From Alphaproteobacteria bacterium (GTDB taxonomy: Bacteria > Pseudomonadota > Alphaproteobacteria > RF32 > CAG-239): a DNA stretch of 64,000 bases. Positions 4,971 to 56,268 of the stretch are shown one piece after another. The translations under genes were made by a program, and so were the position numbers. Positions within the stretch are counted from its first letter, which is position 1, and each line of letters begins with the position of its first letter. Below the pieces are notes generated by a model. That model had not been told where the DNA came from, did not search any database, and was given only the letters and a program-made list of their open reading frames with translations. The stretch is taken from the NCBI GenBank assembly GCA_045613125.1, contig JAZLAM010000022.1, forward strand, positions 77,813-141,812. Reading direction: 5' to 3'.

Positions 4971-5984
4971 ATGAAAAAAATCACATTTGTTTTGAGCATT
5001 ATGATGTTAACATCAAACATCGGATACGCTCAGTCAACTTTAGACTTAACCGAAGCCGATTTTTTAGCTCAAATAAATCAATCTGATTTAAAAGAAAAGT
5101 TTGAACTGCTTGATATCAATAGTGATAAAGCTGTTTCCATTACCGAAATTCAAGAACTGATTAATGGTTTAGACCTTATGACGGAGTTTGAAGGAAACAC
5201 AAAAGAAGAAACCGTAGAACAAATTATGCAAGTGTATCAAAATTCTGATACCAATCCAGATAATCTTCTTAAAGATGATGAGATAAATTTGTTTGTAAAC
5301 GATGTTAACATCATTTTTGCAAAGCAACAATTTAAAAAAATGGACCGTAACGGTGATGGCGTTTATGACTATAATGATGTTCCTCCTTTGGAAGAAAGCT
5401 TGGAAAAATTAAAAGAAGCGACAAAAAAATTACAAGAAGCATCTGATAATCTTAATGCTATAGATCAAGAAGTTTTTACTAATAATTTCGTCAAAGGGAT
5501 TAGCGGATCTGTTGCAAAAGAAGACTTCTATCAAATGGATAAAAATCATGATGGATGCGTTACCGTAGATGAGTATGCAGATTACAGAGTTTTGGCCCAA
5601 GACCGAATTGATGAATTTGATGATACTGATACGAATATTGTGCTTACAAGAGATAATTTTGTAGGCTTGTACGCTCATGAAAAGAAACAAAATCCAAATT
5701 GTTTAACTATAGAAGAATATATAAAAAATCAAAAGGCAATTTTTGATGATATAGATAACATGGATGATTTTGAAAATGAAGAAGAATTTGCCATAAAAAT
5801 ATATAAAGATATGGATACCAATCAAGATAATAAATTAACTCTTGAAGAGTATGTAAACTATAATATGATAACAAATGAAATGACAAAAGATGAGCATATC
5901 AATATGTTTAATTCTTATGAAGGGGCTTCAAAAGGTTGGCTAACTAAAGAAGAATTTATTGAATCTTTCATGATGGCTGATTAA
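4971..5984 (+). CDS. Secreted protein with four canonical EF-hand Ca2+-binding loops
   Basis: Signal peptide MKKITFVLSIMMLTSNIGYAQ. Loops DINSDKAVSITE, DRNGDGVYDYND, DKNHDGCVTVDE and DTNQDNKLTLEE fit D-x-[DN]-x-D-G-x-x-x-x-x-[ED]. Confidence 0.6.
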   Translation: MKKITFVLSIMMLTSNIGYAQSTLDLTEADFLAQINQSDLKEKFELLDINSDKAVSITEIQELINGLDLMTEFEGNTKEETVEQIMQVYQNSDTNPDNLLKDDEINLFVNDVNIIFAKQQFKKMDRNGDGVYDYNDVPPLEESLEKLKEATKKLQEASDNLNAIDQEVFTNNFVKGISGSVAKEDFYQMDKNHDGCVTVDEYADYRVLAQDRIDEFDDTDTNIVLTRDNFVGLYAHEKKQNPNCLTIEEYIKNQKAIFDDIDNMDDFENEEEFAIKIYKDMDTNQDNKLTLEEYVNYNMITNEMTKDEHINMFNSYEGASKGWLTKEEFIESFMMAD

Positions 5985-6941: not shown

Positions 6942-7448
6942 TTACCAATTAGTATTATCTAAATATTTTAACATATCGCGTATCAAACTCTTTTCATCTA
7001 CTTTAGCAATTTTATGCAATAAAGGATCTATGATACAATACCCCGATGAACAATGTTGCATAATAAAACGCCCCATGGTATCAGTAAATTTAATGTCAAG
7101 ATAGCTTTGTAAAAATGGTCGATGCTCATAATATTTCTCAAGTTCAAATTCTTTCATCAGCATATTAATCAGATCATTCCGACGCTTACTTACCGGACAA
7201 TCAGCACCAAACCAAATCACTTTTTTATGTGAAGTCTCAAATAACTCTTTAAAATATCCTTTATTACTTGTTGCATATATCTCATCAGGAATAGTTATAA
7301 TTTTTTTCGGCATAATATACATAAATGTCAACACGAGCACCAATACAAACACTACAATTTTAAAATTTGTTTTAAAATTTGAAAATTTTTGTTCTATCGG
7401 GGCTTGAGCCCTTCTTTTCTGATTGATTTCTTGTATTGTAGGCATCAA
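6942..7448 (-). CDS. Hypothetical membrane-anchored protein
   Basis: 168 aa with one N-terminal TM (IVVFVLVLVLTFMYI). No recognised domain. Confidence 0.3.
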   Translation of the reverse strand: MMPTIQEINQKRRAQAPIEQKFSNFKTNFKIVVFVLVLVLTFMYIMPKKIITIPDEIYATSNKGYFKELFETSHKKVIWFGADCPVSKRRNDLINMLMKEFELEKYYEHRPFLQSYLDIKFTDTMGRFIMQHCSSGYCIIDPLLHKIAKVDEKSLIRDMLKYLDNTNW

Positions 7449-8653: not shown

Positions 8654-9295
8654 TTATTGAAGCAAGATTTCAACAAATTCTGCAGCAAGATCTTTTGCGT
8701 CAACAGATCCGTCAACAACAAGAGCTGCTCTTGATATCCTTGCGATCTGATTCCAAAGAGGTTTTGTGTGAGCATCAAAAGCTGCAAGTCTGTCGTCTAT
8801 AACAGCATCATCTGCTCTTACCACTGAAGGACCGCCACACTTTGGACAAGCACCATCTTTAACACTGTGAGTTGTCTTACAGTGTGCGCACACGCGACGG
8901 TTAGATACACGCTCTTTAATCAGAGCCACATCTGTATCGCGGTGGATTGCGATAATTCTGTAACCCAGCTCTTCTTTAGCCCTGATAATGTCTTGCAATT
9001 GAACCTCTGTGCGAGGATAACCGTCAATAATTTTCAGGCTTTGAGGTTTTTGGAGGGCATTCATCACAAGTTCTGAAACAATCTGATCAGATACAAGACC
9101 GCCTGAATCTAACACTTGTTTGATTTCTTGTCCCAGAGGGGTGCCTGCTGCTTTTTCTGCTCGGAGTAAATCTCCGGTGGAAATGTAAAGAAAGTCAGTA
9201 AAACCTTGCTTTGTCATCTCTTCTGTGATGCACTCACAGACAAATCCTTTGCCGCTACCTGGACGACCAAAAGGAATCAAAATTGTCTTTTCCAT
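8654..9295 (-). CDS. adk: Adenylate kinase with Cys4 zinc-lid
   Basis: P-loop GRPGSGKG; motifs ISTGDLLRAE and IIDGYPRT; lid CAHCKTTHSVKDGACPKCGG; VRADD...RL. Coding GC is visibly higher than the flanks. Confidence 0.85.
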   Translation of the reverse strand: MEKTILIPFGRPGSGKGFVCECITEEMTKQGFTDFLYISTGDLLRAEKAAGTPLGQEIKQVLDSGGLVSDQIVSELVMNALQKPQSLKIIDGYPRTEVQLQDIIRAKEELGYRIIAIHRDTDVALIKERVSNRRVCAHCKTTHSVKDGACPKCGGPSVVRADDAVIDDRLAAFDAHTKPLWNQIARISRAALVVDGSVDAKDLAAEFVEILLQ

Positions 9296-9432
9296 AAAGA
9301 TAAATTTAATTTGATTAATAATTTTAAGTGATATAATAGAATTTATATACCTTTTATATAAAATATTTTTTTAATTTTGTCAATATAAAAAACACCTTAT
9401 TTCTAAGGCGTCGAAAAGTAAAAATAAGAAAA

Positions 9433-11460
9433 TTATGCTGAACCTGTTGTAAATAATTTATAATATTTATAAACTGAACCACCCTCAACGTTCCAACCAA
9501 AATCTTTTCTTAAGGCATTTTGCGTCATCACATTTAACTCTTCACGAAAGTTATAATAACAATTCAGGGCCTTTGATAAAGTATCAGCATATGCATTGGC
9601 ATTGTTTTTTAATTTTTGAGCCACTAAATTTGACCCGTAAACTCTGATTCCTTTAGCAAAAAAGACCTCGGTTCGAAAACCATCTACACCGTTTTTAATT
9701 GTATCAACCAAACCACCGGTAGAAGTTGCAATCGGTAAAGCTCCTTTTGCCATAGCTTCCATTTGAGTTAATCCACAAGGTTCAAAACGCGAAGGCATCA
9801 TATAAAAATCAGCAGCCAGTTGAACGGCATATGCAAACTCATCTCGATAACCTCTGAAAACAAAAATTCTTTTAGCAGCTTTTTTATCAATTTTTTTAAT
9901 CTCTTCTTTTAAATTCTGTAACTTTTTATAAAGTTCCAAATCACCGGCCCCGCCCATTACAAAAATTGGAGCTTCATAGCCTTTATCTACATTGTCTTGA
10001 ATGGTTTGAAGAATGGCTTTTGCGGCAATGTCATAACCTTTTTGTTCAACTAAACGACTTGTTGCACACAAAAAAGGAACTTTATCTGCTTTTTTAATTA
10101 ATGAAGAAATATCTTCAAAATCATGCAAATCGGTAAGAGGTAAAACTTTTTGTTTATAATCAGCATCTGTAGCTAATTTTGATAACAATCTAATGCACTC
10201 TTTTTTATTGTTTAATTTGTTTTTTAAGGAGTTTTCATCAAAAACTTTGAAATTAAAACCATCGAAATATTCATTTATATGATTAATTTTTTTCTCATTA
10301 GGAGAAATAAGATTCTTATCATAACCATTAACGATACCGAAAAATGTACGGTGATCTTTTCTTATTTTTAATACATCTCTAAAATCAAGCCCCAAACCCA
10401 ACTCTGTTGAAACTTCTTCACGATAGTTTTTGGAGACTGTAACCACCCTGTCAGCAAGATGAAAACTTGCTGAGGCCTGATTGTAACAGTCAAATACGAT
10501 AAGAGAATTTGTTGTTCTTTCATTGCTGTTTTTTATAGCTTTTGCATTCTTAAAAATAAGTTTTGTATTATCTTCATACAGAGAATTTAATAACCTTGCC
10601 GTATTCGGATAATCCCATCCTTGATAACCTAAGTGATGTGCAATGTGAATAATCGGAATATTTCTAATTTGTTCAGCAACCGATTCTTCAAGAGTTTTTC
10701 TGTAAGATTCAGCAATTGTAGAATATTTACAAAGTCCGGTTAATGCACCAATATGCCAGTCATTGGCAATTAATATATTTGGCATATTTAACAATCTGAT
10801 TTTATTTTGAGCACAGTCTTTCAACAAAACATACACGGCTTTTGAGAAAAAAGCAAAACGCTCAACTTCATTTACATTGTTTTCATTTTGGACATAACAA
10901 CCATCTTGTGTTGAAGGGTTTTCCGGATGTGGATTGATGGAAAAAAAGTAATCGTTCTTTATAAAAATATAATCTACACCGTTAAAATGTGCTGTATAAA
11001 CTTCGGCTTTATTATTAGAAAGCTCATCTTCAGACTTAAAAAACGGAACATTTATTGATGCGATATGTTTTACATCTACACAAATATTTTGCGAACCTTT
11101 GTACGTTTTGCCGTCAAATACGGAAGATTTTTTACCGGTGTTTCCAGTATACATTGGTGTAACTATTGATATTTTATGATTTTGATTTGCAAATGTTTTA
11201 TTAAAATTATCAGGCAACTCGGAAGCAACCATTCCCAGCCCCCCCCATTTCATAAAAGTGGCGGTTTCGGCAGAAAGCATCCAAGCATCTGTATTTTCAA
11301 TTTGAGGCCACTCATTTTTTCCCAAACACTGGTGTTTAGCCATATGCTGAATATCTACACAATGTTTTTCGTTAGTCTTTTGAAAAACATTATAATTTTT
11401 TTTACGATTAAAATCCGAGGATAAAAAACCTGTCGATAGCGATTTTTTAAGAGTGTCCAT
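9433..11460 (-). CDS. glgA: Glycogen/starch synthase-like GT5 glycosyltransferase (long form, 675 aa)
   Basis: KWGGLGMVASELP (KTGGLGDV-type), PSRFEPCGLTQMEAMAKG and STGGLVDTIKNG are GlgA hallmarks. Confidence 0.7.
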   Translation of the reverse strand: MDTLKKSLSTGFLSSDFNRKKNYNVFQKTNEKHCVDIQHMAKHQCLGKNEWPQIENTDAWMLSAETATFMKWGGLGMVASELPDNFNKTFANQNHKISIVTPMYTGNTGKKSSVFDGKTYKGSQNICVDVKHIASINVPFFKSEDELSNNKAEVYTAHFNGVDYIFIKNDYFFSINPHPENPSTQDGCYVQNENNVNEVERFAFFSKAVYVLLKDCAQNKIRLLNMPNILIANDWHIGALTGLCKYSTIAESYRKTLEESVAEQIRNIPIIHIAHHLGYQGWDYPNTARLLNSLYEDNTKLIFKNAKAIKNSNERTTNSLIVFDCYNQASASFHLADRVVTVSKNYREEVSTELGLGLDFRDVLKIRKDHRTFFGIVNGYDKNLISPNEKKINHINEYFDGFNFKVFDENSLKNKLNNKKECIRLLSKLATDADYKQKVLPLTDLHDFEDISSLIKKADKVPFLCATSRLVEQKGYDIAAKAILQTIQDNVDKGYEAPIFVMGGAGDLELYKKLQNLKEEIKKIDKKAAKRIFVFRGYRDEFAYAVQLAADFYMMPSRFEPCGLTQMEAMAKGALPIATSTGGLVDTIKNGVDGFRTEVFFAKGIRVYGSNLVAQKLKNNANAYADTLSKALNCYYNFREELNVMTQNALRKDFGWNVEGGSVYKYYKLFTTGSA

Positions 11461-18606: not shown

Positions 18607-18683
18607 CGGATTGTAGTTCAGCCTGGTAGAACGCTTCGTTCGGGTCGAAGAGGTCGCTAGTTCGAATCTAGTCAATCCGACCA
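18607..18683 (+). tRNA. tRNA-Pro (anticodon CGG)
   Basis: CGGATTG acceptor stem, anticodon loop TTCGGGT, T-arm GGTCGCTAGTTCGAATCTAGTC, encoded CCA. Confidence 0.8.
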
Positions 18684-18690
18684 AATAAAA

Positions 18691-18716
18691 CCACCCTTCA
18701 GGGTGGTTTTTTGTTT
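18691..18716 (+). terminator. Rho-independent terminator after tRNA-Pro (CCACCCTTCAGGGTGG + T-run)
   Basis: Perfect 6-bp stem, 4-nt loop, TTTTTTG. Confidence 0.6.
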
Positions 18717-18773
18717 ACTTAATTGATTTTTATTGTTAAAGTATAAATCGTTTTATCATCAAGCGAGTTTCAA

Positions 18774-20627
18774 GTGACTAAAAAATTTCTATCAGAAAAT
18801 ACAGAATTAATGAAAGAATGGGATTGGGAAGCAAATGAAGGCTTAAATCCCAATGAAATTACATGTGGTAGTCATAAAAAAGTTTGGTGGAAATGCTCAA
18901 AATGTGGATATAAGTGGTGTCAAGCTGTTGTTGATATTTCTAGAAATAAAATAGAATCATGTTGTCCTGCTTGCACTAATAGGGTTTTAATAAAAGGAAA
19001 AAATGATTTAGCGACGATGTATCCTGAAATTGCTAAAGAATGGGATTTTTATAAAAATAAGGACTTAACTCCAAATAATGTAACATTCAAATATTGTAAA
19101 AAAGTTTGGTGGCTATGCCCTAAAGGACATAGATATGAACAACGTATTGACAATAGAACCCTAAGACACACTAGTTGTCCGTACTGTTCAAATACGTGGG
19201 TTTTGAAAGGTTTTAATGATTTAGCTACAATAAATCCTAATTTAGCTAAAGAATGGCATCCATCTAAGAATGGATGTTTAACTCCTTATGATGTTACAGC
19301 AAATAGCACCAAAAAGGTTTGGTGGTTATGTCCTGTCGGGCACGAATATATAAGAAGCGTACATCAAAGACATGCTGCTTATACTAATTGTCCCACCTGT
19401 GATTCTCGTAAACGTACATCTTTTCCTGAACAAGCTGTCTATTTTTATCTTAAAAAGCTTTATCCTGATGCCATTTCAAGATATAAGATAAATGAAACAT
19501 CAAGTATGGAGCTAGATATATATATTCCTTCTATACAATTTGCGGTTGAATACGATGGAGCATCATGGCATAAAACAGAAGACTGCCATAACCGTGAGAT
19601 AAAAAAATATCAATTTTGTAAAAAATACGGAATAACATTAATAAGAATAAAAGAACAAAATGGTATATATTGGGATGATGTCTGTGATAACATTTATTAT
19701 ATAAAACCAGTAAAACGTAATGATTTATTTGAATTAGAAAAAATTATCAATTATGTTTTAAATTCAATATGTTCATCTATTGATGATTTGCTAGAAGCGA
19801 CTAGAAGCAATATTAACCCTTTGGATTATTCTAAAAGCATACAGCATATTCCATTACCAAAGCCTTTTAAACTTTTTCGCCATAAAATAGATGTAAACAT
19901 AGAAAGAGATAAAAATGAAATTCAAGGATATGTGTTCAAAATTGAAAACTCTTTGGCAGATTTACGACCTGATGTAGCAAAAAAATGGAATTATGATAAA
20001 AATGGAAATTTAACACCTGAAATGTTTAGTGTTGGCTCAGAAGAAATAGTATGGTGGAAATGTCCCAAATGTGGGCATGAATGGAAAATTTCTATAAACA
20101 GCATGACAGGAAAGAAAAGAGGAAATGGATGTGCTATATGTGCAAAAATAGAAAGAGCACAGAAAAGCGTTATAACAAAAATTAAAAATGGAAATTCTTT
20201 AGCTGAGAAAAACCCACAAAAAGCAGAATTGTGGCATCCATCTAAAAATGGAAATTTAACTCCTTATGATGTTACAGCATGTAGTTCTAAACAAATTTGG
20301 TGGTTATGTAAAAAATGTGGATACGAGTGGCAAATGAGCCCTCATAATAGAAAGAAAGGACAAGGTTGTCCCCATTGTGCTGGTAAAGTTCCTTTAGTAG
20401 GTGTTGACGACCTAGCATCAACACATCCAAAATTAACCAACGAATGGAATTATGACAAAAATATCAATATTGCACCTCAAAATGTTAAAGCAGGAAGTGA
20501 TAGAATTGTTTGGTGGAAATGTTCAAAATGTGGCTTTGAGTGGCAAGCTGTTGTTAGATTTAGAGTAAAAGGCTTAGGTAAATGTCCTCATTGTTCTAAA
20601 AAACAATTGGATTTAGGCCTAGAATAA
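18774..20627 (+). CDS. Zinc-ribbon-repeat protein: 3x treble-clef zinc-ribbon (PF14311/DUF4379-like) + DUF559/Vsr-like endonuclease-fold domain + 3x zinc-ribbon
   Basis: Six repeats of W.(W/P/H).SKNG.LTP.(D/N)VT..S.K.VWW.C.KCG(Y/H)EW....R....GCP.C. The central block FAVEYDGASWHKTEDCHNREIKKYQFCKKYGITLIRIKE resembles the DUF559/very-short-patch-repair restriction-endonuclease-like fold. GTG start. Confidence 0.6.
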   Translation: MTKKFLSENTELMKEWDWEANEGLNPNEITCGSHKKVWWKCSKCGYKWCQAVVDISRNKIESCCPACTNRVLIKGKNDLATMYPEIAKEWDFYKNKDLTPNNVTFKYCKKVWWLCPKGHRYEQRIDNRTLRHTSCPYCSNTWVLKGFNDLATINPNLAKEWHPSKNGCLTPYDVTANSTKKVWWLCPVGHEYIRSVHQRHAAYTNCPTCDSRKRTSFPEQAVYFYLKKLYPDAISRYKINETSSMELDIYIPSIQFAVEYDGASWHKTEDCHNREIKKYQFCKKYGITLIRIKEQNGIYWDDVCDNIYYIKPVKRNDLFELEKIINYVLNSICSSIDDLLEATRSNINPLDYSKSIQHIPLPKPFKLFRHKIDVNIERDKNEIQGYVFKIENSLADLRPDVAKKWNYDKNGNLTPEMFSVGSEEIVWWKCPKCGHEWKISINSMTGKKRGNGCAICAKIERAQKSVITKIKNGNSLAEKNPQKAELWHPSKNGNLTPYDVTACSSKQIWWLCKKCGYEWQMSPHNRKKGQGCPHCAGKVPLVGVDDLASTHPKLTNEWNYDKNINIAPQNVKAGSDRIVWWKCSKCGFEWQAVVRFRVKGLGKCPHCSKKQLDLGLE

Positions 20628-20634
20628 CAGGCTA

Positions 20635-20784
20635 CTATTCTTTAGGTTTATCATCTTCCTTTTGTTTGCAGGGATGATTTTTCTCCATCCGCTTTTCAAT
20701 AATCTCTCCGCTTTCGAGCATTTCTAAATAATTTAATAAATCAGGCAAGATAATTTTAATTAATTTTTCTGTTTCTTTTGACAT
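20635..20784 (-). CDS. Small hypothetical protein (49 aa) inside the tRNA-Pro islet
   Basis: Encodes MSKETEKLIKIILPDLLNYLEMLESGEIIEKRMEKNHPCKQKEDDKPKE with a strong RBS (AAAGGAGA). Convergent with the zinc-ribbon gene. Confidence 0.25.
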   Translation of the reverse strand: MSKETEKLIKIILPDLLNYLEMLESGEIIEKRMEKNHPCKQKEDDKPKE

Positions 20785-21032
20785 TGTATCTCCTTTTTTA
20801 ATAATCAGACTTATACCAATGCTTGGAAAAATAAAAAAGTCAAGTTATAACCTAGTGGTCAGTGTATTTCATTGAAAAACAACAAAAATTTTTTTTACAA
20901 AACAAGTGGGCAGTAAATTTAGTCAACCCCATCAGTATGGATGAGAAAGTTCGACCACACATTCATAACACTTTGAAAAAGAATAAAAAATTTATATTGT
21001 TTAAAATACGGTATTTTTTTATAATTTAGGGG

Positions 21033-21048
21033 TAGTTAATCCGACCAA
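21033..21048 (+). repeat. Direct repeat of the tRNA-Pro 3' end (TAGTtAATCCGACCAA; attR-like), followed by a terminator-like hairpin
   Basis: 15 of 16 positions identical to 18669-18684. Followed by GCCACCTGTATGGTGG plus a T-run, mimicking the tRNA's own terminator. Confidence 0.5.
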
Positions 21049-21383
21049 CACAAGAAAGCCACCTGTATGGTGGTTTTTTTGTGTTGAATGCATTTGCATT
21101 AGGTTCGAACTAGCGAGAAAGCTAGTTTGCACTTCAAGCGAAAGGCACACGGGGTGTACCGGTCGGCAAAGCCGATGAGCGCCGAGCATGTAGCGAAGCG
21201 AAATAATCTGCTTAATCCGGACTAAATTTTACAAAACGCCAAAATCACATTCTTTTATTATCAATTTATTGTTATAATTGCATAATTTATAAAAATCTTT
21301 TTCTACTGATTTTTAGATAATTTCCCTCAAATTATTTGACTTTTACTTAAAAAAGTTATATTCAAAAATACAAGGAGTGTAAT

Positions 21384-21890
21384 ATGAAATTAAAGAAAAT
21401 TAGCACTGAAAAAGATGTGGAAATTGTTAGAAGTTTTTTCTATGATATATTTTGGGAAGAAGTTGATTACGATTTAATCCATTTCAAAGATTCAATAACC
21501 AAAAATCATAATTTTCAGCGTCTGGAATATTATTTAGGGTATGAAAACAATAATGTTGTTGGCATATCTGGTATATACGCAAATAATGCAAATGAATGTT
21601 GGTTAGGGTGGTTTGGTATAATACCGGAATATCGTCGCAAAGGCTATGCCTCAGCAATGATTAACTTGCAGTTAGAAATGATGAAAAATTACGGATACAA
21701 GCTATGTCGTCTTTATACTAATGAAGTTATCAATAAGGTTGCTGTGCAGTTGTATACAAAAATAGGATTTCAAAAAGATTCTGATTATGAAAATCATATA
21801 ATAACAATGTTTAAACCACTGAATGATGATACATATATTTCAAAGTGGCAAGGGATACCCTTAGGTTTTGTTCCGGAAGTGCCGATATAG
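21384..21890 (+). CDS. GNAT family N-acetyltransferase
   Basis: Motif A region RRKGYASAMINLQLEMM...LCRLYTN...AVQLYTKIGFQ. Confidence 0.7.
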   Translation: MKLKKISTEKDVEIVRSFFYDIFWEEVDYDLIHFKDSITKNHNFQRLEYYLGYENNNVVGISGIYANNANECWLGWFGIIPEYRRKGYASAMINLQLEMMKNYGYKLCRLYTNEVINKVAVQLYTKIGFQKDSDYENHIITMFKPLNDDTYISKWQGIPLGFVPEVPI

Positions 21891-22009
21891 TTCACAGATT
21901 ACAAGATGCCACTGTTCGACAAGTAATATCAGGCAGACGGAAGCACGCCGGTGTCTTAAGGCAGATGTAACGAGACTATAATGAAAATATAGGGAAAAGA
22001 AAATAAATA

Positions 22010-22125
22010 ATATTAACATGTAACTATCTGTTGCTGATATGAGTTCTAATGTTCAACATATACAAAAAGTAATTAAAGGAAGAAAAAAACATTAGAAATT
22101 GATATATATGGTCAGAATATTTTGT
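22010..22125 (+). pseudogene. Truncated duplicate of the 5' end of the 23786..24130 gene (ELSVADMS..NV.HIQKVIKGRKK)
   Basis: About 115 bp at roughly 90% identity to 23801-23915. The reading frame is broken by a 1-nt difference in the A-run (aaaaaaacattag vs aaaaaaaccattag). Confidence 0.45.
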
Positions 22126-23728: not shown

Positions 23729-23785
23729 TAACATTAAAATGCGAAGCTATAATGAAAAATTGTAGCTTCGCTATAGGAAAAGAAA

Positions 23786-24130
23786 ATGACTAATATTAAA
23801 ATGGAACTATCTGTTGCTGATATGAGTGCAAATGTTCATCATATACAAAAGGTAATTAAAGGAAGAAAAAAACCATTAGAAATTGAGATATATGGTCAGA
23901 AAGTTTTGTTTGTTTATGATAATATTGAAATGCCTATATCTATAAAAGATATTAATACAAGTAATAATATAATACTTGCCAAGTATGTATTAATCAATCC
24001 ATTATCGCTATTTAGCTTAATTACAAAATATAAAAAGTATGATTTTTTTAAAATATCATTTGAAGATATAGGTTTAAGGATAATGATAGATAATACTGTT
24101 TTTAGCTTTTGTGCTAAAAAAGTTATGTAA
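23786..24130 (+). CDS. Hypothetical protein (its 5' part is duplicated at 22010-22125)
   Basis: 114-aa ORF; no motif recognised. Confidence 0.35.
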   Translation: MTNIKMELSVADMSANVHHIQKVIKGRKKPLEIEIYGQKVLFVYDNIEMPISIKDINTSNNIILAKYVLINPLSLFSLITKYKKYDFFKISFEDIGLRIMIDNTVFSFCAKKVM

Positions 24131-50478: not shown

Positions 50479-50564
50479 TGGTAGGGGTGATGAGACTTGA
50501 ACTCATACTCGCTGAGCGAACAAGATTTTGAGTCTAGCGCGTCTACCAATTCCGCCACACCCCC
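50479..50564 (-). tRNA. tRNA-Leu (anticodon CAA), type II with long variable arm
   Basis: Reverse complement reads GGGGGTGTGGCGGAATTGGTAGACGCGCTAGACTCAAAATCTAG..GAGTTCAAGTCTCATCACCCCTACCA, with CCA encoded. Confidence 0.8.
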
Positions 50565-56002: not shown

Positions 56003-56018
56003 ACTTGGTGCTCTGAAA
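56003..56018 (-). repeat. 16-bp duplicate of the tRNA-Leu(CAG) 3' end (TTGGTGCTCTGAAAAG) with its own terminator hairpin
   Basis: Identical to 56181-56196. Adjacent hairpin CCCCGCATTTGCGGGG with an A/T run. Confidence 0.5.
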
Positions 56019-56181
56019 AGAAACGCTAAGTAAAAAAGCAAGCAACCTTGCTTTTTTATCTGCAAGTTCTTTGTAACATCTTAATGAGCAAGGGAGTTTT
56101 AACGACCACAGCGAATTTAGATGCCTAAGCCATAGTCCTTTTAGGTTACAAAAAAAAATCTCCCCGAAGGGAGTTTTTTAT

Positions 56182-56268
56182 TGGTGCTCTGAAAAGGACT
56201 TGAACCTTCACGAGAATTCTCTCACAAGTACCTGAAACTTGCGCGTCTACCAATTCCGCCACCAGAGC
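56182..56268 (-). tRNA. tRNA-Leu (anticodon CAG), type II
   Basis: Reverse complement reads GCTCTGGTGGCGGAATTGGTAGACGCGCAAGTTTCAGGTACTTG...GGTTCAAGTCCTTTTCAGAGCACCA. Followed on its strand by terminator CTCCCTTCGGGGAG plus a T-run. Confidence 0.8.

Follow-up and report, generated by a model that had tools for sequence, protein, structure and literature searches.

A tRNA-Pro gene in a 64 000 nt stretch of DNA from an alphaproteobacterium (the whole stretch is referred to here as the window) is followed downstream by a second copy of its own 3′ end, and the DNA between the two copies encodes a large zinc-ribbon protein. The locus raises the question of whether this DNA was inserted as a unit, how such a unit could move and what its cargo does. 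Our preferred reading, to which a probability of roughly 0.72 was assigned, is that positions 18685–21048 represent one cassette, devoid of a recombinase, within an additive island that was seeded by the tRNA-Pro gene, in which a nuclease is the cargo and the backbone is portable.

The attachment site and the direct repeat

The intact tRNA-Pro(CGG) gene (18607–18683, + strand) was located with ARAGORN and Rfam (RF00005, 62.3 bits) and provides the attachment site at which the array is seeded. Its final 16 nt, TAGTCAATCCGACCAA (attL core, 18669–18684, + strand), recur as TAGTtAATCCGACCAA (attR core, 21033–21048, + strand) with agreement at 15 of 16 nt. This was the sole such pair at up to three mismatches on either strand of the whole 64 kb window; the chance expectation for the repeat at ≤1 mismatch is 5e-5 per 5 kb and a match was obtained in none of 300 Markov-simulated 64 kb sequences, so that the 16 bp direct repeat reported in the earlier note is confirmed. 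Rfam searches at the gathering cutoff and at E ≤ 10 returned only the tRNA, with no match to the right-end module or the GC-rich unit described below. The enclosed DNA has a GC content of 0.25–0.36, the same as its flanks, and holds only two credible genes, encoding proteins of 617 and 49 residues.

A terminator scan identified a hairpin and T-run at the left end of the cassette (18687–18716, + strand), consisting of a 10 bp stem (18687–18710) followed by the T-run. This hairpin acts as the new tRNA-Pro terminator and is 95% identical to positions 9462–9415 and 7387–7344 of the related locus L005, where it opens two cassettes. The second repeat is followed by a bidirectional hairpin (21046–21086; inverted repeat I23), an 18 nt inverted repeat (21046–21063 and 21069–21086) ending in T7; the same sequence lies directly 3′ of the tRNA in locus L006, which identifies the hairpin as the displaced original tRNA-Pro terminator. 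Both of the similar hairpins previously described after the repeat copies are therefore present, and the two regions are 76% alike.

Comparison with related loci

The tRNA-Pro(CGG) gene is identical at 77 of 77 positions in loci L004–L007. In L006 its 3′ end directly adjoins the sequence that follows the second repeat in the window (88% identity over 192 bp); a three-way alignment showed this junction to equal the attL-left plus attR-right sequences of the window and delimited the inserted cassette to 2364 bp (~2.36 kb; 18685–21048). The exact boundary may slide inside the repeated core. In the sister genome L004, the Nfo protein of which is 96% identical to that of the window, homology ends at 18688 and restarts at 21047; the intervening 3.3 kb consist of unrelated genes and include an internal copy of the module, core and terminator. 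Site-specific insertion at the tRNA, as claimed from the window alone, is supported by the empty junction of L006 and the alternative genes of L004. The uninterrupted tRNA-Pro site that the earlier note suggested looking for was thus found, and an ancestral position of the gene is not upheld.

These two loci also bear on a repeat that arose by chance or local duplication around a gene ancestral at its position, which the mere 16 nt of the core and the unchanged GC content of the islet would suit. This explanation is refuted by the repeat statistics, the empty junction and the alternative content, and the same backbone was moreover found at three tRNA-Pro isoacceptor genes; we consider it to be next to impossible.

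Further cassettes were found in other arrays. In L007 the left end of the cassette is 94% identical over its first 230 bp (230 bp being available) and accompanies the gene for the 617-residue protein; this copy lies ~1.7 kb distal to the tRNA, while identity in the neighbouring core DNA drops to 88.5%. At a tRNA-Pro(UGG) gene, L092 carries the 49-residue ORF, module, core and terminator at 85% identity in a cassette of 2548 bp that encodes an HTH protein and an MT-A70 methylase besides a MunI-type restriction endonuclease (9e-53). L084 has the same APH cassette as L004, at another tRNA-Pro(UGG) gene, and the L093 group is located at tRNA-Pro(GGG). Tandem arrays are present in L004, L005, L007 and L093, with exact core repeats at +154, +331 and +2402 in L005. 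The att identity common to the isoacceptors falls to CCGACCA (7 bp) in L092. Such a stretch is short for the core of a tyrosine integrase and counts against our main reading.

The right-end backbone

The 49-residue ORF (orf49; 20635–20784, − strand), which had been noted as convergent to the large gene, was confirmed. It is preceded by an AGGAGA ribosome-binding site, follows the right-end module as the first gene and encodes a helical micro-protein that was modelled by AlphaFold (AF2) as two helices. In 136 homologues the N-terminal 36 residues are nearly invariant, and most differences relative to L093 are synonymous or fall on third codon positions. These patterns indicate that the core of orf49 is under purifying selection and, as an addition to the earlier note, that orf49 is a real, conserved gene.

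The right-end module (20785–21032; conserved from 20827, ~220 bp) contains conserved blocks, among them a AGTGGnCnGTGnA motif present twice and a −35-like box, TTGACT, directed at orf49, the promoter assignments being consensus matches. Its copies in other loci always adjoin the att core and are 78–87% identical in L004, L005, L084 and L092 and ~69% identical in L093–L100 (alignment A5). We propose that the module acts as an attP arm and promoter. A strong promoter-like site on the + strand (20778–20805), considered as the start of a `module RNA', was rejected as it is not kept in the other modules. Judged from these alignments, orf49, the module and the att core form a portable right-end backbone that is found with other cargo at tRNA-Pro genes of the CGG, UGG and GGG types, and the islet is one member of a larger array of such cassettes; both points are likewise new relative to the earlier note.

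The module and core have been retained in at least six independent cassettes that differ in cargo; orf49 is also present in four of these, and all six lack an integrase. This conservation was set against the possibility that the islet is the decayed stump of an autonomous prophage, ICE or IME that has lost its integrase by deletion. Direct repeats of a tRNA 3′ end are the classic scar of integrase-bearing elements, tRNA-seeded islands accumulate degenerate remnants and partial tRNAs (bioRxiv 10.1101/2020.12.28.424599), and two features of the window, a third copy of the core (21213–21227) and a GC-core fragment (21914–21978), are decayed. The repeated survival of one ~220 bp module and core is however unexpected under random decay, as is the purifying selection on the core of orf49, and we regard a decayed stump as unlikely.

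Cargo-free units downstream of the cassette

A GC-rich, structured unit of ~130 nt without cargo was identified at 21093–21227 (+ strand) from alignments A1 and A3 (nhmmer E 4e-34). Units of this type consist of a shared GC-rich core within a copy of the last 28 nt of the host tRNA. The unit in the window ends in the third tRNA 3′-end copy, CTGCTTAATCCGGAC, at 21213–21227, which has decayed, while its relatives close the same unit with an exact AATCTAGTCAATCCGACCA; the GC-core fragment at 21914–21978 is clearly decayed. When such a unit folds, its inverted copy base-pairs to the att core, re-creating the duplex of the tRNA 3′ end. Covariation in hairpin 1 was rejected as evidence for an RNA because it tracks the T-stem sequence of the host tRNA and is therefore not independent.

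Search for a recombinase and proposed route of insertion

Neither of the two proteins of the islet matched a recombinase in Pfam; lacking an integrase of its own, the islet does not qualify as an autonomous integrative element. A Pfam scan of 20 window ORFs recovered a single recombinase, a truncated serine-recombinase N-terminus that runs off the window start (1–381, − strand; Resolvase, 1e-26), which agrees with the earlier note, and none was found in the flanks of L004, L005, L092 and L093. The whole window and loci L001–L100 were then covered by tblastn with one tyrosine integrase, one large serine recombinase and two small serine recombinases as queries; only the truncated resolvase at 1–381 and one in L029 were recovered. 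These results fit the previous suggestion that the islet lacks an integrase and is either decayed or mobilized in trans. For a helper element, the module pattern gave zero matches in viral contigs and one in JGI metagenomes (L084), the 19-mer of the tRNA 3′ end gave zero matches in viral contigs and none of 50 697 phage genomes matched the module region in blastn. A module 16-mer matched viral contigs 41 times, and all of these matches were shown by BLAST to be due to chance. Neither an excised circle nor an attP junction was seen.

The recombination route that we infer for the cassette is as follows. A circular form ordered as module, core and hairpin would recombine with the tRNA-Pro 3′ end inside the ...AATCCGACCA core, using a recombinase supplied in trans. 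Insertion would rebuild the tRNA and bring a new terminator, and the original terminator together with older units would be pushed downstream. The predicted circle junction is …TTTAGGGG-TAGTyAATCCGACCA-AATAAAACCACCC… and the predicted restored empty site is tRNA-ACACAAGAAAGCCACC…. Each cassette would be built from a backbone (att core, ~220 bp module and 36-residue micro-protein core) and a swappable cargo slot toward the tRNA; the backbone of the L093 group, beside another tRNA-Pro array, is ~69% identical.

Alternatively, the tRNA-Pro 3′ ends of these gut alphaproteobacteria could be home to an integron-like system that lacks a resident integrase, made up of the folded cargo-free units and of cassettes with a conserved 36-residue micro-protein and an attP-type module of ~250 bp that includes a promoter. 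Cassettes would then shuttle nuclease, restriction–modification and other cargo among three tRNA-Pro isoacceptor genes, and the folded units would provide an attC- or CTX-phage-like single-strand substrate, which would imply recombination by a host or otherwise unrecognized recombinase. Integron cassettes are similarly small, mostly of one gene, recombinase-less, arranged head to tail at one site and swappable in cargo, and the cargo-free units loosely resemble a folded attC. On the other hand, an intI/attI/Pc platform is absent beside the array (the neighbours are nfo, rsmA, surA and lptD), the repeat core is AATCCGACCA with no R′′/L′′/L′/R′ GTTRRRY sites, each cassette brings a promoter-like module of its own and attachment is at a tRNA 3′ end. 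We hold this alternative to be improbable.

The 617-residue protein

The cargo gene (18774–20627, + strand) starts with GTG, an ATG at 18810 also being possible, and encodes three DUF4379 ribbons, a Vsr/EDxHD-like nuclease, a helical linker and three further DUF4379 ribbons. The three zinc-ribbon modules described earlier on each side of a central domain were recovered by Pfam as six stretches of PF14311/DUF4379 (335.8 bits, E 2e-102; gathering cutoff 24.5 bits), and their ligand columns (CxxC/CxxxH...CxxC) are all invariant or nearly so among homologues. In NCBIfam the sole match above cutoff was a generic FmdB zinc-ribbon domain. The six treble-clef ribbons would act as modular nucleic-acid-reading heads.

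The central domain had been described as DUF559/Vsr-like. The fold was borne out, the AF2 model (pLDDT 83) matching a Vsr-type α/β nuclease with the DNA nucleases 3hrl, 1cw0 and 3r3p as closest folds, while the family was not: Pfam DUF559 (PF04480) gave no match at E ≤ 1, and the best Pfam matches, MTES_1575 REase (4e-4, 20.8 bits; cutoff 38.2) and DUF2726 (5e-3, 17.1 bits; cutoff 24.7), fell short of threshold. A sequence profile against the PDB found DUF4379 mitoribosomal proteins only and no nuclease, so that a fold search was required to reveal it.

The nuclease core (residues ~213–311; 19410–19706, + strand) has the order α-β-β-β-α-β, and 50 homologues show no variation at its candidate catalytic residues E219, D248, E259/D261, H266 and E275. 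Their spacings of 29, 13, 5 and 9, compared with 26, 12, 5 and 9 in I-Bth0305I, were matched as spacings and not by residue-level superposition; the active-site residues of the latter are E170, D196, N208, H213 and D222 (PMC3239194), and the last candidate acid is Glu (E275) rather than D222. On the strength of the model, the central domain is assigned to the Vsr/EDxHD branch of the PD-(D/E)xK fold and the cargo is probably an Mg-dependent DNA endonuclease.

Exact-sequence look-ups of the protein (with both starts) and of Nfo returned no record. The protein family has >8000 members, and the nearest relatives are from similar gut/rumen metagenome contigs; the remark that the architecture is unusual in a reduced genome is thus without support.

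Role of the cargo

The cargo most likely cuts a specific DNA sequence, as either a free-standing homing-type selfish nuclease or a defence nuclease. Solved DUF4379 domains belong to RNA-associated mitoribosomal proteins, so that an RNA target can be envisaged, with the protein acting for example as a toxin against tRNA or rRNA or by binding RNA. Against this stand the complete invariant set of acidic residues and histidine, typical of DNA-cutting Vsr/EDxHD enzymes, the closest folds, which are those of DNA nucleases (3hrl, 1cw0 and 3r3p), and a genomic company of restriction–modification systems and mobile elements; an RNA target is accordingly rated as very unlikely.

Between the two DNA-directed roles, it is conceivable, if somewhat doubtful, that the nuclease is a free-standing homing-endonuclease gene (HEG) that invaded a pre-existing orf49 cassette by cut-and-repair and moves apart from the att repeats of the cassette. 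DNA homology to five other contexts (L003/L085, 84%; L087; L086; L001) spans the ORF alone, from the start codon to a point ~13 nt short of the stop, and the flanks are unrelated; L092 and L093 hold cassettes of the same backbone without the nuclease gene. Relatives of the protein are present in lytic Listeria P100-like phages, which are HEG-rich. Tandem CapR/DUF4379-like domains joined to an EDxHD/Vsr-like nuclease are also found inside group I and II introns of phages, and such proteins have been described as a large unrecognized homing-endonuclease outgroup (PMC12350094). The present gene is free-standing, outside any intron or intein.

Other observations run against invasion by a HEG. Neither a target site nor an allele of this particular cassette without the nuclease gene was found, and the gene travels with the left end of the cassette in L007. 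The neighbours at other loci resemble defence islands: a Type III-like restriction–modification system and DarTG in L001, a Schlafen-like helicase in L088 and RhuM in L090 were counted for defence, as was the restriction–modification system in the same cargo slot of L092. In PADLOC-DB 2.0 no family was matched at E ≤ 0.01 by the 617-residue protein, orf49 or P0009. The 212-residue proteins upstream of the L001 and L003 homologues were considered as the mark of a shared element and discarded, being unrelated to each other.

Relation to known systems and significance

CIMEs and the integrase-less satellites of ICEs and IMEs are flanked by att sites, lack recombination genes and lie in tandem at the 3′ end of a tRNA or other gene, their recombinase being presumed to act in trans. 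The cassettes described here share the att sites on both sides, the absence of mobility genes and the tandem accretion; they differ from CIMEs in being far smaller and in having a conserved promoter-bearing end and a micro-protein. The window ORFs scanned and the flanks of the loci yielded no cognate ICE, IME or integrase. The tycheposon islands of Prochlorococcus grow from the 3′ end of a full-length tRNA, including tRNA-Pro(UGG) (bioRxiv 10.1101/2020.12.28.424599), and the present array is like them in that partial tRNA copies separate the elements, newcomers push older ones distally and the cargo serves defence or a niche. Tycheposons however encode a tyrosine (or small serine) recombinase of their own as well as replication functions, whereas the units here are recombinase-less, measure 0.15–2.5 kb and have a specific module and micro-ORF backbone in common.

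The nuclease resembles I-Bth0305I (PDB entry 3r3p) and the outgroup of PMC12350094 in its Vsr-type fold, the spacing of its candidate catalytic residues, tandem DNA-binding modules and phage or mobile contexts. In contrast to EDxHD homing endonucleases, the nuclease is central and not C-terminal, with three zinc ribbons per side; the DNA-binding modules are treble-clef zinc ribbons in place of NUMOD/HTH, the last acid is Glu and the gene is not part of an intron or intein. Proteins of the DUF559/MTES_1575/DUF2726 group (such as NGO0050, PDB entry 3hrl) are usually single-domain or helicase-type fusions, whereas here the domain lies inside a six-fold zinc-ribbon array and no Pfam family of the group reaches threshold.

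If our preferred reading is right, the locus is a compact, well bounded example of nuclease-type gene exchange in uncultured gut alphaproteobacteria, with one attachment core (CCGACCA end), one backbone and interchangeable cargo that ranges from the zinc-ribbon/Vsr nuclease of the window to a MunI-type restriction–modification system (L092) and a kinase-family APH gene (L004 and L084). The DUF4379-plus-Vsr-like family has been put forward as a new homing-endonuclease lineage in a proposal without biochemistry (PMC12350094), and the 617-residue protein is a clean full-length representative of this large uncharacterized family for which predicted catalytic residues are now given. Where the locus could yield something new is in its missing recombinase and in the cargo-free units that mimic a tRNA.

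Insertion at tRNA-Pro

The stretch 18685–21048 (2,364 bp) is an insertion at an intact tRNA-Pro(CGG) gene (18607–18683; ARAGORN and Rfam). The last 16 nt of the tRNA, TAGTCAATCCGACCAA (18669–18684), are repeated with one mismatch at 21033–21048, and these copies form the sole such pair (three or fewer mismatches, both strands, whole window), with a chance expectation of 5e-5 per 5 kb and a match in none of 300 simulated windows. A hairpin followed by a T-run lies after each core copy (18687–18710 and, as an inverted repeat, 21046–21086), as the earlier note had described for the repeats bounding the islet. The 617-aa ORF (18774–20627, + strand) and a convergent 49-aa ORF, orf49 (20635–20784, − strand), are situated between the core copies. 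Housekeeping genes flank the islet on the left (lptD, surA, rsmA, nfo) and on the right (GNAT, a TIM-barrel protein, an outer-membrane protein and a class II aaRS), and its GC content is not distinct from that of the flanks.

With Nfo as the query, the GTDB species genomes that matched were MAGs of uncultured Alphaproteobacteria from gut and rumen. In the sister genome (L004; Nfo 96% identical, synteny with the window on both sides) homology extends up to 18688 and starts again from 21047; between those breakpoints L004 contains 3.3 kb of other genes, namely an APH-family kinase and two ORFans. In a relative with an uninterrupted junction (L006) the tRNA 3′ end is directly joined to ACACAAGAAAGCCACC...TTTTTTTGTGTTGAATGCATTTGCATTAGGTTCGAAC, the sequence found 3′ of the second repeat in the window. 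The three-way alignment is a textbook case of attB = attL-left + attR-right, and the reading of the islet as an insertion is thereby confirmed. Since the lone core mismatch is at position 5 of 16, exchange would fall within AATCCGACCA.

Cross-matches to L004 (about 90%) additionally revealed a duplicated segment of ∼140 nt in the window (21988–22125 and 23742–23931); from the sequence, the second copy looks like the 5′ part of an ORF at about 23796–24130 and the first like a truncated pseudo-copy. A 337-aa ORF at 4971–5984 gave multiple EF-hand matches (EF-hand_7, 9e-14; EF-hand_6, 1e-10), which is probably uncommon for an alphaproteobacterial chromosome.

Array organization and shared backbone

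The islet is one unit among several in an array. The L004 island is divided into two cassettes by an internal core copy, and exact copies of TAGTCAATCCGACCA are located at +154, +331 and +2402 past the tRNA in L005 and at +147 in L007. The left end of the window cassette, comprising core, hairpin, promoter region and the gene's first 130 nt, is present in L007 at 94% identity, ∼1.7 kb distal to the tRNA and separated from it by a membrane-protein cassette and two units without cargo. In the window the cassette is followed by a cargo-free unit (21093–21227) that has a third, decayed core copy at its end. The GNAT acetyltransferase gene (21384–21890) lies between this GC-rich unit and, to its right, a fragment of the same GC-rich core (21914–21978), as is also seen in L004; the gene could represent a fixed, older cassette of this island. 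In L005, paralogous 97-aa genes (9052–9345 and 6984–7277; function not assigned, weak T4_baseplate similarity at 4e-4) each start one of two successive cassettes on the tRNA-proximal side, which suggests that a cassette was duplicated or that the backbone has another recurrent gene.

A module of ∼220 bp 5′ of the second repeat (kept from 20827) recurs beside an att core in other loci: L004, L084 and L092 have it, L005 has one and a half copies of it, and L093–L100 have more distant copies. It invariably faces a gene directed back to the tRNA and carries a conserved TTGACT box at the end nearest that gene. This first gene is a member of the orf49 family in the window, in L092 and in the L093 group. 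A spurious origin of orf49 was ruled out by its homologues (n = 136; first 36 residues near-invariant, tails variable) and by mostly synonymous differences (11 synonymous and 6 non-synonymous codons between window and L093, where third positions account for 13 of the 21 changes). Two helices are predicted by AF2.

Such a backbone is present in L092 (GCA_045632845.1, JAZQXL010000011.1, 5700–8361), where a 2,548 bp cassette at tRNA-Pro(UGG) shares orf49, module, core and terminator with the window (85% identical over 436 bp) and carries a complete R-M system, consisting of a MunI-type REase (9e-53), an MT-A70 methylase and a controller-like HTH protein. L084 has the L004 APH cassette at another tRNA-Pro(UGG), and the L093 group is located at tRNA-Pro(GGG). 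The identity common to all isoacceptors is only CCGACCA, i.e. the last three acceptor-stem bases, the discriminator base and CCA. Because cassettes lacking the nuclease have the same ends, the nuclease is not required to explain the att repeats.

Prochlorococcus tycheposons are tRNA-seeded additive islands with tRNA-Pro among their targets (bioRxiv 10.1101/2020.12.28.424599). The array resembles them in its partial tRNA separators and in older units being pushed distally by newer ones, and resembles CIME-type satellites in being att-flanked; it differs from both in the very small units, the backbone of conserved module and micro-ORF and the lack of any recombinase in view. The array is not an integron, having neither an intI/attI/Pc platform nor attC motifs.

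Cassette cargo

The 617-aa protein contains six DUF4379 repeats (Pfam, E 2e-102). Its centre gave sub-threshold Pfam matches to the Vsr-clan REase families MTES_1575 and DUF2726 and was unmatched by the DUF559 HMM. An AlphaFold model (50 homologues as input, mean pLDDT 83) comprises three zinc ribbons, a core (aa 217–310; alpha-beta-beta-beta-alpha-beta), a long helix, a disordered linker (343–366) and three further ribbons. The protein is assigned to DUF4379 by Pfam and, by its modelled structure, to the Vsr/EDxHD fold; of what the earlier note expected, the six PF14311/DUF4379 repeats and the Vsr-type fold were recovered and the DUF559 match was not. Invariance, complete or nearly complete, extends to E219, D248, E259, D261, H266 and E275 and to all zinc ligands. 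The spacings of E219, D248, D261, H266 and E275 (29, 13, 5, 9) parallel those computed for the active-site residues E170, D196, N208, H213 and D222 of I-Bth0305I (26, 12, 5, 9; PMC3239194), a putative correspondence drawn from spacing and not from superposition. The family has >8000 matches, the nearest named one being from an Alphaproteobacteria MAG; the protein matched no PADLOC family, and its sole NCBIfam match above the cut-off was to a generic FmdB zinc-ribbon domain.

Tandem CapR/DUF4379-like domains with an EDxHD/Vsr-like nuclease occur in phage group I and II introns, where they have been termed a large unrecognised outgroup of homing endonucleases (PMC12350094), and marseilleviruses encode 4×DUF4379 plus a restriction-endonuclease domain (PMC5513546). 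A selfish, single-gene, homing-type unit is consistent with nucleotide homology to the closest relatives (69–84% protein identity) stopping at the ORF limits wherever it was seen (at least five unrelated contexts), and with one-ribbon versions in lytic Listeria P100-like phages; the name homing endonuclease is not warranted without a defined target. A defence nuclease carries roughly equal weight: the same cassette slot holds the R-M system in L092, and homologues adjoin Type III-like R-M, DarTG, an HNH protein, a Schlafen-like helicase (group-3-like, with the homologue immediately upstream) and RhuM. One homologue lies in a tRNA-Asn-adjacent island (L001 1–14000) that also encodes a Type III-like methylase together with a ResIII helicase, the HNH protein, DarT with a DarG-like Macro-domain protein, a Type ISP enzyme and a tyrosine integrase; two adjoin large serine recombinases on unrelated contigs (L086 3975–8936 and L087 3–2695), and the one beside the Schlafen-like helicase is in L088 527–4965. 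The observation and core interpretation of the earlier note stand; for the cassette cargo we claim no more than a sequence-reading array of zinc ribbons that would deliver a predicted Vsr-type DNA nuclease.

Search for a recombinase

The earlier note had seen no integrase in the islet; Pfam likewise revealed no recombinase in the cassette or in 20 window ORFs scanned, and the genes called in L092 and L093 include none. Using one tyrosine, one large serine and two small serine recombinases as tblastn queries, none was found in any array locus. Viral contigs and phage genomes gave no genuine match to core or module. The sole recombinase nearby is a small serine recombinase cut by the window start (1–381, − strand; N-terminal 127 aa; Pfam Resolvase, 1e-26); it is 47% identical to one in the L001 island and 61% to one in L029, and no link between it and the tRNA-Pro att site was found. 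The L001 island contains both this resolvase relative and the 617-aa protein homologue.

Cargo-free GC-rich units

Copies of a ∼130-nt GC-rich unit are located in the window (21093–21227), L005 (9444–9756), L006 (134–312), L007 (1581–1913), L093 (9409–9749), L084 (112–232) and L047 (181–310). Located after the tRNA terminator, the unit has at its end the last 19 nt of the host tRNA, copied exactly (decayed in the window copy). Within it, a ∼70-nt core (AAGCGAAAGGC, a hairpin and a GGTCGGC-AAA-GCCGA hairpin) splits the 3′ 28 nt of the tRNA at the T-loop; an inverted copy of the T-arm, joined in some units by one of the CCGACCA end, comes before it. The core is constant and the flanks vary with the host tRNA (Pro-CGG, Pro-GGG, Leu-CAG). 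Intact units fold with a closing helix (z about −3.1), compensatory changes occur in two inner hairpins, and Rfam gave no match to the unit.

A second att-like arrangement (56006–56268, − strand) was observed at tRNA-Leu(CAG) (56182–56268), the 3′ end of which, CTTTTCAGAGCACCA, is exactly repeated 161 nt downstream at 56006–56021 with a terminator hairpin after each copy; the unit between is AT-rich and has no GC core. No such 3′-end repeat was found for tRNA-Leu(CAA) (50479–50564).

The cargo-free, tRNA-mimicking GC-rich unit may be an RNA, a folded-DNA recombination site or a miniature element.
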